The position numbers and the translations under genes were made by a program. A model generated the notes under the pieces. That model had not been told where the DNA came from, searched no databases, and was given only the letters and a program-made list of their open reading frames with translations. A stretch of DNA of 49,653 bases, from sequence record PP069513; one strand, 5' to 3'. Positions 1,187 to 49,573 of the stretch are shown here, in pieces; the stretch's first letter is position 1; every line of letters begins with the position of its first letter. Source of the DNA: Escherichia phage BUCT-XGG-1.

Positions 1187-1444
1187 ATGAATAGAAAAAG
1201 AAGTCCAGACGGAAAATTTTCTGGTGATCCGCTACTACCTGGAGGTTTTCATAATTGCAACTCATGCGGAATTAAAAAGGAGGCTGACGATAAAAACTTT
1301 AGAACAATAAATAAAGGAAAAACATGCGAGAGCCTAAGCAAAACTTGCAGAAAATGCGAGTATCAAAAAGGAAAGGATAAACACGCAAGGAACATGAAAA
1401 ACCCTGAATTTGCAGATGCGAGAAGGGAAAGGTGCAGGAACTAG
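1187..1444 (+). CDS. Cys-rich protein (possible N-terminal part of an HNH-like gene)
   Basis: ATGA overlap with upstream frame; CxxC pairs; same reading frame as 1466..1756, separated by TAG at 1442-1444. Confidence 0.4.
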   Translation: MNRKRSPDGKFSGDPLLPGGFHNCNSCGIKKEADDKNFRTINKGKTCESLSKTCRKCEYQKGKDKHARNMKNPEFADARRERCRN

Positions 1445-1465
1445 AGGAGCAACAACAGAAGTAAG

Positions 1466-1756
1466 GTGGCGCTTAAAAATTATCAAGCAATAGATAAAAA
1501 GAAAGGACTTACATGCACCATGACAATTGATGATGTTGATGAGTTGCAGTCAATGCCATGCTACTATTGCGGAGATACGGAGCGGGTTGGTGCTGACAGG
1601 ATTGGCAACTCACTTGCTCACACGCGCAAAAACTGCCTTCCATGTTGCCCTGATTGTAATATCTGTAGGAGTAACACTTTTTCAGTTGATGAGATGATGG
1701 TGATAGGCAAAGCGATAAGACTCGTAAAGAAATCAAGAAATAGCACGAATTGCTAA
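1466..1756 (+). CDS. HNH-like endonuclease domain protein
   Basis: GTG start; Cys/His/Asn pattern CYYCG..DRI..H..N..PCC..CN; C-terminal NSTNC and stop encoded by the box. Confidence 0.45.
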   Translation: MALKNYQAIDKKKGLTCTMTIDDVDELQSMPCYYCGDTERVGADRIGNSLAHTRKNCLPCCPDCNICRSNTFSVDEMMVIGKAIRLVKKSRNSTNC

Positions 1757-1783
1757 AGCCCTTCGGGGCTTTTCCTGTATATT
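1739..1783 (+). promoter_or_regulatory. box promoter candidate (TGTATATT -10)
   Basis: Box 1739-1757, hairpin GCCCTTCGGGGC, TATATT at 1778-1783 (22-bp gap), leader CATCGAAACGAA, gene 1822. Confidence 0.5.
1758..1775 (+). terminator. intrinsic terminator-like hairpin
   Basis: GCCC TTCG GGGC followed by TTTTCC, directly after stop of 1466..1756. Confidence 0.4.
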
Positions 1784-7841: not shown

Positions 7842-7886
7842 AGTATACCCGCGCGGTGGCGGGTATGTTTAGCAATTCGTGCTATT
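7842..7886 (-). promoter_or_regulatory. box promoter candidate
   Basis: Box 7868-7886 containing TAG stop of 7882..8109; TATACT at 7842-7847 (22-bp gap). Confidence 0.45.
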
Positions 7887-9146: not shown

Positions 9147-9192
9147 ATAATACACCACCTCACCGATTCGTCTTTAGCAATTAGTGCTATTC
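9147..9192 (-). promoter_or_regulatory. box promoter candidate
   Basis: Box ATAGCACTAATTGCTAAA (9173-9192) supplying NSTNC-stop of 9174..9602; TATTAT at 9147-9152 (22-bp gap); leader CATCGAAACGAA. Confidence 0.5.
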
Positions 9193-9602
9193 AGCATATC
9201 AGCAACGGCTTTCTTGTATTCCTCCTGGCCGTACGCCACCGCCGCGAATCCGCCACGCTCTCGGACACGCCGGAGGAAATCTTTCTGCTCCTTACTGACT
9301 GGTGATGCCTTTCCTTTTCCGCTCTTATTGACGCGCTTTAATTCTATGGCTCCGAAAGGATATTTACCGAACGGACCTAGAAGGAATACAAAGTCACTAA
9401 CCCCCTTCAATAACCCGCTCTGAGCATCCTTTAACGCCGTGTGGATGTGCTTCTTGTTCTCATTAACGGCGTGCCAGAACAGCAAATCACCATGCCTAAC
9501 CTTCGTCCAAGTCACGCAATCTACTTGGTGCTTGCTTTCCGTCCATGTGTCAGATTTGTCTGGCGTGTAATATTCAATGTAATCTATTTTATCGGTTTTC
9601 AT
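9174..9602 (-). CDS. VRR-NUC domain nuclease
   Basis: GVSDFVF ... AIELKR pattern matching VRR-NUC PD-(D/E)xK core. Confidence 0.55.
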   Translation of the reverse strand: MKTDKIDYIEYYTPDKSDTWTESKHQVDCVTWTKVRHGDLLFWHAVNENKKHIHTALKDAQSGLLKGVSDFVFLLGPFGKYPFGAIELKRVNKSGKGKASPVSKEQKDFLRRVRERGGFAAVAYGQEEYKKAVADMLNSTNC

Positions 9603-10081
9603 TTTTTCGCTCCGTGGTTTTTATGGAACCCATTGGTTGACTCTGTAAGTTTTCTTGCTGAGATTGCATCGGCAAGTGACCTTCCTTCGTATAGGAATTT
9701 TTTCTTACCGCCAATCTGTATCTGTGCTACCCATGTCTTATTCCTTGACTTCCAGTTAACTCCTGTAACTCCGCTTTTGTTGTTTGAATACATCGACTTG
9801 TTAAGCATGTTATCGCCGCGACTAACAAGCCTTAAGTTTTCTATTCTATTATCAGTTCTTATGTGGTTTATGTGGTCAACCTCCATTCCGTTCGGCATTG
9901 GTCCGTTATGCATTACCCAAACTATGACGTGAGCGGGTTATGACTTCTTTTTGTACATGACTTTAATGTAACCTTCGCTGTCTATAGTGCCGGCTAAGTC
10001 TCCCTCATACACCTTTGCGCTGGGCTTTATAGCCCAGAATAATAATCCATTTTTATAATTCAGTATGTTATTAAAAATCAT
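9599..10081 (-). pseudogene. HNH-AP2 homing endonuclease interrupted by in-frame TAA
   Basis: ATG at 10081 (ATGA overlap with helicase stop) gives MIFNNILNYKNG...YKKKS then TAA at 9938-9940, then in frame PAHVIVWVMHNG...DHINHIRTDNRIENLRLV; full-length paralogs at 17492, 36060, 12801. Confidence 0.6.
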
Positions 10082-12800: not shown

Positions 12801-13247
12801 GTGAAGATATTAAGATTTTTGTATCTATATAAAGATGGTAATTTAATTCGATGCTACAGGGCTGGGAGGCACGCGCCTGGAGAAGTAGCAGGCACTGCTC
12901 ATATCTCAGGTTACATTCATGTTGGCGTGCTAGGGAAAATAATGAAAGCGCATAGGGTTTCATGGTGGATAAACTATGGCTTCATACCTGATCATTTGCA
13001 TATAGACCACAAAAATCACATTAGGAGTGATAACAGAATAGAAAACCTTGAATTGAAAAGTAACGCCGAGAATCACAAAAACATGTCTATATATAAAAAC
13101 AATAAGAGTGGAACTCATGGCGTTAGATGGAATAGAAAATTCTCAAGGTGGGACGTAAACATCGTAGTTAATGGCAAAAAGTGCTACGTTGGAGTTTTCA
13201 AGTCTCTTTCTGCCGCAGTAGATGCTAAGATTAAAGCAGAAATATAA
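12801..13247 (+). CDS. HNH-AP2 homing endonuclease
   Basis: GTG start after GGAG RBS; HxxH..N..H HNH core (HIDHKNHIRSDNRIENL) and AP2-like tail; start moved downstream of terminator. Confidence 0.7.
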   Translation: MKILRFLYLYKDGNLIRCYRAGRHAPGEVAGTAHISGYIHVGVLGKIMKAHRVSWWINYGFIPDHLHIDHKNHIRSDNRIENLELKSNAENHKNMSIYKNNKSGTHGVRWNRKFSRWDVNIVVNGKKCYVGVFKSLSAAVDAKIKAEI

Positions 13248-13273
13248 AATAAATTTCATAGGAATCATGGAAA

Positions 13274-14218
13274 ATGAATGAGCCAAATTACCAGAAAGAA
13301 GAAGTGCTGCCGTATATGAAGGGATTATGGCGTGAAGCGTTACAATCCATTTGTGGCTTGCAGTCCGGCGTGTTCAATAAGAAGCACCAACCATGCCCTT
13401 ACTGCGGCGGCAAGGATAGATTCCGGTGGACTGACGAACTAGACTCCCCTGGTGACGGCGGCGCGATCTGTAACGGATGTGGTAACGATAAAGGCGTCGG
13501 CTGGATGATGAAACTGACTGGTGAGCCTTACAGTGAAGTGATTAACATCCTTGGTCGATTCCTTAGTAAAGTTCCGCAGGATTACAAAGCTAAGGCTTAC
13601 CGCAGGGCGTCTCGCGTACCGGAGAAAGGCCTTGGCAAGATGGCGGATCATGAGTCGTGCGTATCTGTAATGGAACGCACAGAAAAGCGCGAGAGCACCG
13701 ATTTAAGCGTGTATGAGTGCCTAACCGAAGATTCATATGATGTTGGCGTAAAAGTGCGTCAGAATGGCACTGAGGAGCTAATACACGCACTACCGTGCTA
13801 CATGGTCCACCATGACGGAATTGATGAGGATATGTGTAACGTCATGTTTGCTTATGATAATGGCGAATACACTTTCCTTGCGCGTGATTATTCTCGCGGC
13901 TCAGTGGTTAAACTGGGGGGTGGCGAGGATGATGCAGCTATATATATGACAAGCGATCTGATTGATGGTTATCGTGTGAAGATGGCGACCAGTCAGGAAG
14001 TGTGGGTGACTTTCTCCCCTGAGAATCTTGAGATTGTTGCTTATCGGTATCGTGGCGAACGTGAATTGCGCGTAGCGTGTCCTGCTGATGATTTGCGAAC
14101 GCTTTACATGGCAGATGAACGTGATTTAAAAGTTGTAGTGCCGAACGGAGGAAACTTCAAAATGGGCCTTGAGCGAAAGTTATATACGCCGCAGGATCTG
14201 ATAGATAAGTATTCATAA
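13274..14218 (+). CDS. DNA primase-like protein with zinc-ribbon
   Basis: CPYCGGKDRFRW ... CNGCG zinc-binding motif typical of phage primase N-termini. Confidence 0.6.
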   Translation: MNEPNYQKEEVLPYMKGLWREALQSICGLQSGVFNKKHQPCPYCGGKDRFRWTDELDSPGDGGAICNGCGNDKGVGWMMKLTGEPYSEVINILGRFLSKVPQDYKAKAYRRASRVPEKGLGKMADHESCVSVMERTEKRESTDLSVYECLTEDSYDVGVKVRQNGTEELIHALPCYMVHHDGIDEDMCNVMFAYDNGEYTFLARDYSRGSVVKLGGGEDDAAIYMTSDLIDGYRVKMATSQEVWVTFSPENLEIVAYRYRGERELRVACPADDLRTLYMADERDLKVVVPNGGNFKMGLERKLYTPQDLIDKYS

Positions 14219-14270: not shown

Positions 14271-14289
14271 TTTTAGCAATTAGTGCTAT
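14271..14289 (-). promoter_or_regulatory. orphan box copy in inverted orientation
   Basis: TTTTAGCAATTAGTGCTAT on plus strand; no -10 at the usual spacing in the box orientation; sits 22 nt upstream of tail fibre ATG. Confidence 0.4.
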
Positions 14290-14312
14290 CCATAAAAAAA
14301 GAGGTTTACATT

Positions 14313-19412: not shown

Positions 19413-19458
19413 AATAGCACAAATAGCTAAAGACTCCGCCGCTCGTTGCATGTATAGT
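19413..19458 (+). promoter_or_regulatory. box promoter candidate (variant AATAGCACAAATAGCTAAA)
   Basis: Box 19413-19431, TGTATAGT at 19453-19458 (23-bp gap), then membrane peptide and lipoprotein genes. Confidence 0.45.
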
Positions 19459-41452: not shown

Positions 41453-41529
41453 TGGCGTTCAGCGCTGGACTCGAACCAGCAACTAAGACTTAGGAGGTCT
41501 TTGCGTTATCCTGTTAACGCCAGCAGAAC
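41453..41529 (-). tRNA. tRNA-Arg (anticodon CCU)
   Basis: Hand-folded cloverleaf: D stem GCGT/ACGC, anticodon stem AAGAC/GTCTT, loop CU-CCU-AA, T arm GCTGG-TTCGAGT-CCAGC, encoded CCA; acceptor stem has one U.U mismatch. Confidence 0.65.
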
Positions 41530-43355: not shown

Positions 43356-43401
43356 ACTATAACAAAACCCGCCGGAGCGGGTTTAGCAATTCGTGCTATT
43401 T
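43356..43401 (-). promoter_or_regulatory. box promoter candidate
   Basis: Box 43382-43401 abutting TAA of kinase gene; hairpin CCCGCTCCGGCGGG; TGTTATAGT (22-bp gap). Confidence 0.5.
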
Positions 43402-47290: not shown

Positions 47291-47348
47291 CGGCTTCTGC
47301 CTCCACTTCCTCAGCCGCCCTGATGAGTGCCGCCGCCAGTTTGCGGGC

Positions 47349-47501
47349 TTACTTAGGACTGTATTGCATCAGTGTCTGGCCGCCCCTGTAGTAATCCGGA
47401 TCGAAGTCAATGGACACAACGGTATCCCAATCTCTTTTTGTGATGGCTACTTCAGCCTGGTCAAAGTAAACATCTTCAATACGAACATTTTTCATCTTCA
47501 T
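47349..47501 (-). CDS. hypothetical protein (~50 aa)
   Basis: Start taken at MKMKNV after AAAGAGGAAA RBS. Confidence 0.35.
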   Translation of the reverse strand: MKMKNVRIEDVYFDQAEVAITKRDWDTVVSIDFDPDYYRGGQTLMQYSPK

Positions 47502-47525
47502 TTCCTCTTTGTTGTCTATGGGGTA

Positions 47526-47571
47526 ATCATAGCTGACTACCCGATCCATTGTTTAGCAATTCGTGCTATTC
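47526..47571 (-). promoter_or_regulatory. box promoter candidate
   Basis: Box 47552-47571 containing TAG stop of 47566..48123; hairpin GGGTA..TACCC with GCTATGAT (22-bp gap). Confidence 0.5.
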
Positions 47572-49528: not shown

Positions 49529-49573
49529 AATAGCACGAAATGTTAAAACAGCAATAAAGAAAATAAGTATAGT
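49529..49573 (+). promoter_or_regulatory. box promoter candidate reading across window end
   Basis: Box AATAGCACGAAATGTTAAA (49529-49547), TATAGT at 49568-49573 (22-bp gap); no long ORF before window end. Confidence 0.45.

Follow-up and report, generated by a model that had tools for sequence, protein, structure and literature searches.

An apparent amber allele of a predicted PacI-like nuclease gene in a swap-prone slot of Escherichia phage BUCT-XGG-1

Introduction

Do the two adjacent open reading frames (ORFs) at 1187-1756 of Escherichia phage BUCT-XGG-1 represent two genes, one gene held at low expression by an in-frame stop codon, or one gene that has lately been broken? The question arises in the window analysed here, that is, the whole 49,653-nt stretch of DNA (record PP069513). 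On its plus strand, an upstream ORF (1187..1444; 85 aa plus TAG) and a downstream ORF with a GTG start (1466..1756; 96 aa) share one frame, which runs from ATG 1187 to the amber codon TAG at 1442..1444 and, after 21 nt (1445-1465), from GTG 1466 to TAA 1754-1756. A preliminary description had reported same-frame ORFs split only by TAG and 21 nt that together would encode ~190 aa, and the sequence and its translation agree: joined, the two ORFs give a product of 189 aa, with the amber at codon 86 of the 189-codon gene (1187..1756). The start codon ATG 1187 overlaps the TGA of a small upstream ORF (ATGA, 1187-1190), and the same ATGA coupling is seen for the gene that occupies this slot in relatives.

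Homologs of the Joined Reading Frame

A megablast search of 1000-1900 against 50,697 phage records grouped the window with Nouzillyvirus-like Drexlerviridae (T1-like coliphages) and found the whole stretch in only one record, Escherichia phage P818 (ON062054.1), which carries a single annotated 570-nt CDS of 189 aa (UOX38467.1) at the same position. The joined translation is 97.9% identical to UOX38467.1 over all 189 residues, and the genes share 99.1% nucleotide identity (5/570 differences); in the nucleotide alignment, the window TAG stands against TGG (Trp86) in P818, a G-to-A transition at 1443. Trp86 is invariant in P818 and in the homolog clusters P0001 and P0002, and is also found in P0154, while Tyr or His replaces it in more distant members of a 19-sequence alignment. 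P0001 (189 aa, 91% amino-acid identity) and P0002 (184 aa, 62% identity) are single chains with Trp at the break position, and intact P0001 occupies the same slot on Nouzillyvirus-like contigs. More broadly, tblastn identified a relative in 64 phage records, 47 of them with an uninterrupted match over at least 80% of the query, and a profile search of 1.84 billion representatives recovered 8,909 relatives (E<=1e-3), many of the top ones 165-200 aa in length and covering profile positions ~20-185, which span the break point.

Occurrence of the two parts as separate genes elsewhere was considered and rejected. The sole short homolog, P0023 (116 aa), reflects a mis-called start, its frame being open upstream (MPRNYRK...CNRC...CRGC) so as to include the Cys4 zinc ribbon; the P0023 gene itself lies at 2728-3351 of L005 (a Logan SRR30300780 contig), on the opposite strand and inside a lysis-gene cluster. 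Because the homologs are single-chain and P0023 is a gene-calling artefact, no relative is left in which the parts stand apart, and the earlier view of the ORFs as halves of one zinc-finger-plus-nuclease gene is upheld by close homologs that are all single chains. Alignment with these intact homologs shows that the two ORFs correspond to one gene broken by a single in-frame TAG.

Predicted Fold and Active Site

The affiliation of the encoded protein is less apparent from domain libraries. With a cut-off as lax as E<=1, Pfam still yielded no nuclease family for the two halves or for the fusion; its HNH families (PF01844, PF13392 HNH_3, PF02945 Endonuclease_7, and others) did not reach the gathering score, and 8 of the 10 diverse homologs scanned likewise had no Pfam nuclease match. 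NCBIfam returned nothing and PADLOC only marginal matches. PHROGs placed the fusion in phrog_1035, "endonuclease VII" (E 6e-15, residues 18-175), with 56.8 bits for the fusion as against 38.4 for the C-terminal part alone.

An AlphaFold model computed on the 19-sequence alignment (pLDDT 92.4) predicts a beta-rich zinc ribbon at residues 21-54, followed by three helices between residues 55 and 105, the second of which contains Trp86. Another helix spans 114-121, the beta-beta-alpha core occupies 135-161, and a long helix forms the C-terminus. The ribbon, with cysteines C24, C27, C54, and C57 and beta strands at residues 21-54, belongs to an N-terminal region that is variable across the 19 homologs, the CxxC...CxxC module being present in close relatives. 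The upstream ORF accordingly holds this zinc ribbon and most of two linker helices, and the downstream ORF holds the whole PacI-homologous catalytic core (residues 94-189). Ten residues are invariant in the alignment (C125, Y127, C128, D137, R138, N141, N149, C154, C157, and N158), and the active-site and zinc motif (1559..1660, plus strand; C125-x-Y-C128, D137-R138, (G140), H145, N149, C154-x-x-C157-N158) is intact, all active-site residues being retained in the downstream ORF of the window.

The canonical catalytic His, which closes beta-1 and supplies the first H of HNH, is absent; an invariant Arg takes its place in all 19 homologs. HMM alignment equates D137-R138 with PacI D92-R93, N158 with N113, and C125, C128, C154, and C157 with C63, C66, C109, and C112; it further matches His145 (His in most homologs, Tyr in P0164-P0166) to the general-base Tyr100 of PacI and places Leu108 at the position of PacI His42, which is not conserved. 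PacI is described as devoid of the canonical catalytic His, with an omega-loop Tyr filling its role, and Arg93, Tyr100, and His42 are described as catalytic (PMC5714182, PMC4081073, PMC13139853); its metal ligands are given as Asp and Asn (PMC4081073). By position, His145 could take the role of PacI Tyr100. The predicted protein thus has the metal-ligand Asp/Asn of a His-Me finger together with a flanking structural Cys4 site, and its nearest sequence and structural relation is PacI (PDB 3LDY/3M7K) rather than other HNH clades; PacI is listed as His-Me finger "group 20" in the classification of Jablonska et al. (2017; PMC5714182). Several differences from PacI are evident: the phage protein has His145 where PacI has its general-base Tyr100 (although Tyr occurs in some family members), PacI is without the additional N-terminal Cys4 zinc ribbon and two helices (phage residues 1-90), and the predicted nuclease is phage-encoded and, in the window, amber-interrupted. 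T4 endonuclease VII, whose name is attached to phrog_1035 and to several phage records, is also a Cys4-stabilised beta-beta-alpha-metal nuclease. We conclude that the gene product is a His-Me finger protein akin to PacI that carries an additional zinc ribbon, and not a classical HNH protein or endonuclease VII. The "HNH-like" label of the preliminary description therefore survives as a His-Me (beta-beta-alpha-metal) relationship but not in its narrower sense, as Pfam HNH models miss the protein and Arg occupies the catalytic His position.

Nuclease and Methyltransferase Cassettes

ESCO41, CJ19, and most other relatives carry a 222-aa DNA methyltransferase (MTase) at the same position. Homology to these MTase-carrying relatives stops at 1191, just past the start codon, and resumes at 1729, within the last codons ("...NSTNC*"). 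The family of the slot MTase was found in 1,481 phage records, and the nuclease is accordingly the rare alternative in the slot; this MTase is encoded elsewhere in neither the window nor P818. Relative to P818, the cassette (1200-1799) is 98-100% identical and the adjacent 200-300 nt are 81-94% identical, with immediate flanks of 81-91% (left, 900-1099) and 81-85% (right, 1800-1999), a mosaic that is consistent with recent lateral transfer of the cassette. P818 (UOX38467.1) and cluster P0001 resemble the window in slot, length (189 aa), ATGA coupling, and 3' boundary element, and differ in having TGG (Trp86) and an uninterrupted frame where the window has TAG, as well as in reading DRIDN (P818) or DRINN (P0001) in place of DRIGN.

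The 3' junction of the nuclease/MTase swap is marked by a repeated element (1739..1783, plus strand) that comprises the 18-mer AATAGCACGAATTGCTAA (N-S-T-N-C-stop), a hairpin (AAAGCCC-TTCG-GGGCTTT, 1755-1772), and TATATT (1778-1783). With up to one mismatch, AATAGCACGAATTGCTAA occurs 9 times in the window versus 0.01 expected, namely at 254-271, 1739-1756, 19413-19430, and 49529-49546 on the plus strand and at 7869-7886, 9174-9191, 14273-14290, 43383-43400, and 47553-47570 on the minus strand. Downstream of every copy come a 22-nt spacer that often forms a GC hairpin, then a -10-like hexamer (TATAnT) and then the ribosome-binding site of the next gene, and the 18-mer often supplies the last codons of unrelated genes, such that several proteins end in ...NSTNC. 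The record of a related phage annotates a "terminator" under the 1739-1783 stretch; the hairpin at 1755-1772 was not called by an in-house terminator scan. By its composition, the unit looks like a repeated promoter/terminator boundary cassette, which we take to be reminiscent of the PeSL elements of T4-type phages.

In the Klebsiella phage KB57 (Mydovirus; L008, NC_028659.1; 1812-3067), an MTase gene and a full-length homolog of the focal nuclease share 4 nt at the start of the latter, and this MTase is 40% identical (E 8e-51) to the slot MTase of ESCO41 (L002, 1458-2126) and CJ19; in Ro1, a DNA methyltransferase is annotated at the match to the focal gene. In Drexlerviridae the two genes occur as alternatives for the slot, and in Mydovirus KB57/Ro1 they form an MTase-nuclease pair that is translationally coupled. 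The latter pairing may indicate a functional link or may be coincidental; a general nuclease-MTase link was not established, given that the MTase family occurs in 1,481 phage records and adjacency may be due to chance.

The gene also invites comparison with the free-standing homing endonuclease genes (HNH_3/PF13392) of T1-, T4-, and T5-like phages. Like these, it is a small nuclease gene whose presence varies at a fixed site flanked by conserved genes, its cassette is more conserved than the flanks, and inactivating point mutations are tolerated. Unlike HNH_3 homing genes, it belongs to another His-Me clade without a PF13392 match, and it replaces an MTase ORF-for-ORF instead of inserting into an intergenic or intron site.

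Selection on the Family and Other Interrupted Genes

Comparison of P818-type with P0001-type intact copies gives dS 0.56 and dN 0.045, and because their dN/dS is 0.08, the full-length protein is, as judged from codon substitutions, normally functional and under strong purifying selection; the N-terminal half is under the same selection as the remainder. The window differs from P818 by one synonymous, three nonsynonymous, and one nonsense change, which is too few for a test. When L006 serves as outgroup, the changes E118D, D140G, and W86* appear to be derived on the window lineage, a pattern that fits relaxed constraint.

When all 75 P818 proteins were mapped onto the window, stops within the alignments fell only in accessory genes, i.e., the focal gene, an HNH_3 gene at 9599-10081 (minus strand), and a small ORF near 47.3 kb; a secondary HSP added a fourth stop, close to the C-terminal end of a further HNH_3 gene (12822-13274). 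No frameshifts were detected among the P818 proteins aligned to the window, and over 50 conserved orthologs were intact. The limitation of stops to dispensable genes fits real mutations filtered by selection and not random base-call errors.

The gene at 9599-10081 (PF13392, E 5e-21) lies between a helicase gene and a VRR-NUC-like gene, where P818 is without the insert, and is TAA-interrupted ("KKKS*PAH"); its closest relative, in Klebsiella phage Opt-817 (66% identity), has TAC (Tyr) at the position of the TAA. The earlier observation of two nuclease genes with one in-frame stop apiece is consequently confirmed. The further claim that the two are paralogs was rejected, as the 9599-10081 gene is on the minus strand, belongs to the HNH_3 family, and shows no relationship to the focal protein that BLASTP could detect (E 2.1). 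The two genes differ in family and in stop codon, which favours knockouts that arose independently over a common mechanism. The remaining two cases are smaller. The gene at 12822-13274 (plus strand) ends in "...KAEI*", with C-terminal similarity running for 9 more in-frame codons ("NKFHRNHGK*"), which points to loss of the final ~10 residues through a premature stop. The small hypothetical ORF at 47322-47549 (minus strand; 66 aa) bears a TAA stop ("QYSPK*ARKLAAALI"), its P818 homolog UOX38515 reads through at the site ("QYSPDAARKLAAALI..."), and similarity extends beyond the stop, making it a third accessory gene in which the stop is apparently premature.

The TAG allele was found in no other public assembly or collection, and a protein look-up recovered neither the exact 85-aa nor the exact 96-aa truncated product. 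A 26-nt pattern allowing TAG or TGG had zero matches in IMG/VR and the JGI metagenomes, a result that is uninformative rather than negative. Since the gene otherwise matches an intact copy at 99% identity, the event appears recent, and as the family dN/dS is 0.08, it is a knockout in one lineage and not part of a general decay. The preliminary suggestion of ongoing decay of selfish endonuclease genes is therefore sound insofar as premature stops are confined to accessory genes, but does not extend to the family, which is under purifying selection.

Alternative Explanations

The probable explanation, in which we have good confidence, is that a dispensable PacI-like nuclease gene has recently acquired an amber nonsense mutation. 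A sequencing or assembly error, such that the phage really has TGG at 1442-1444 and an intact gene, is unlikely. It would account for a difference that amounts to one substitution against a 99%-identical intact gene and for an allele without a match in other public assemblies. The assembly is otherwise clean, however, as the conserved orthologs described above attest, and the clear premature stops sit in dispensable nuclease genes that make up roughly 5% of the genome; from the coordinates, the chance of two random substitution errors both landing there is estimated at ~0.002. In addition, two of the three replacements relative to P818 (E118D and D140G) appear to be window-derived with L006 as outgroup, consistent with relaxed constraint.

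We consider it very unlikely that the locus is a functional split, in which ribosomes would stop at TAG and start anew at GTG 1466, 22 nt downstream, to give a stand-alone PacI-like catalytic core and a separate zinc-ribbon peptide. In E. coli, translation is known to restart after amber codons (lacI, T4 rII), the onset of PacI homology coincides exactly with the start of the downstream ORF, which encloses every invariant residue, and the Shine-Dalgarno-like duplex (-5.6 kcal/mol) is within the range of real starts (median -6.0). Nevertheless, the GGAG lies 16 nt from GTG 1466, outside the usual spacing of 5-9 nt, the arrangement is absent from relatives (the short P0023 being an artefact), and equal purifying selection on the N-terminal half implies that the fused form is the functional one.

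The slot itself gives rise to a reading that we likewise rate as quite improbable, in which the intact gene is a PacI-type site-specific nuclease that rivals a C5-methyltransferase-like gene for the slot, and the amber allele is an attenuated or conditional form of a nuclease that is costly without the MTase. If this were true, the nuclease would serve as a weapon or homing device between phages, its activity tied to that methylation, and the amber allele would be expressed via read-through, restart at GTG 1466, or suppressor hosts.

Lastly, the preliminary description had raised deliberate low-level expression through stop read-through. A UAG followed by A is a comparatively leaky and well-suppressed context in E. 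coli, a nuclease could be toxic without a protecting methyltransferase (the slot MTase being absent from both the window and P818), and the occurrence of Tyr at this position in a distant homolog suggests that a supF-suppressed product would probably be functional. The in-frame stop, however, is shared by no relative: P818, P0001, P0002, and P0154 have Trp, and the match is uninterrupted in 47 phage records. A 95-nt stretch that covers the stop and the sequence after it folds no better than shuffled sequences (z +0.61), no Rfam match was found, and the genome encodes no suppressor tRNA, its only phage tRNA being tRNA-Arg(CCU). This tRNA gene (41453-41529, minus strand; anticodon CCU) reads the rare codon AGG. 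Reassignment of TAG was also rejected, as TAG is an ordinary terminator in this genome, ending 6 of 54 conserved genes exactly where their P818 orthologs end. With neither a downstream structure nor a recoding motif nor a suppressor tRNA, with a stop that no relative conserves, and with P818- and P0001-type phages that carry the intact gene without the slot MTase and hence tolerate full expression, the proposal that UAG has been retained to restrict a toxic nuclease to low levels from natural read-through, or to amber-suppressor hosts, is extremely improbable, and the earlier suggestion is not sustained. Low-level read-through, supE/supF suppression, or restart at GTG 1466 may each occur to some extent; no sign of selection for them was seen.

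Concluding Remarks

On the reading of a recent amber allele, the locus at 1187-1756 would be a single accessory gene whose product, a small nuclease of site-specific type from the PacI branch, bears an N-terminal Cys4 zinc ribbon; the gene lies in a swap-prone early-region slot of a Nouzillyvirus-like (Drexlerviridae, T1-like) coliphage. One G-to-A transition at 1443 would have turned TGG, the codon for the conserved Trp86, into the amber TAG, from which it would follow that ribosomes coupled from the upstream ORF by ATGA make an 85-aa zinc-ribbon fragment and then terminate; this fragment is the expected product of the allele. The catalytic core (94-189), which keeps all conserved residues, would be left untranslated, save for background UAG read-through, occasional restart at GTG 1466, or growth in an amber-suppressor host. 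The downstream 96-aa ORF is thus probably untranslated or translated only at a low level, and some C-terminal product is possible in view of the intact downstream catalytic residues and the SD-like GGAG before GTG 1466. The knockout would be tolerated because the gene is dispensable, a DNA methyltransferase filling the slot in most relatives. We infer the nuclease activity of the intact copies from their likeness to PacI; loss of function in the window, dispensability of the gene, and the fate of the C-terminal part are likewise put forward as the interpretation that best fits the comparisons.

In practical terms, the split matters chiefly for annotation, the phenomenon being an ordinary one: the two ORFs should be recorded as one disrupted gene (a pseudogene or amber allele) and neither as two hypothetical proteins nor as a recoding event. 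Of somewhat wider relevance is the family, whose members bear inconsistent labels ("endonuclease VII", "HNH", "restriction endonuclease", and "hypothetical"); a large phage family (8,909 representatives at E<=1e-3) without a Pfam or NCBIfam model is here placed beside PacI, an atypical, His-less HNH enzyme. Finally, the slot constitutes a clean ORF-for-ORF exchange of nuclease and methyltransferase and, as such, offers a tractable example of modular shuffling in T1-like phages.
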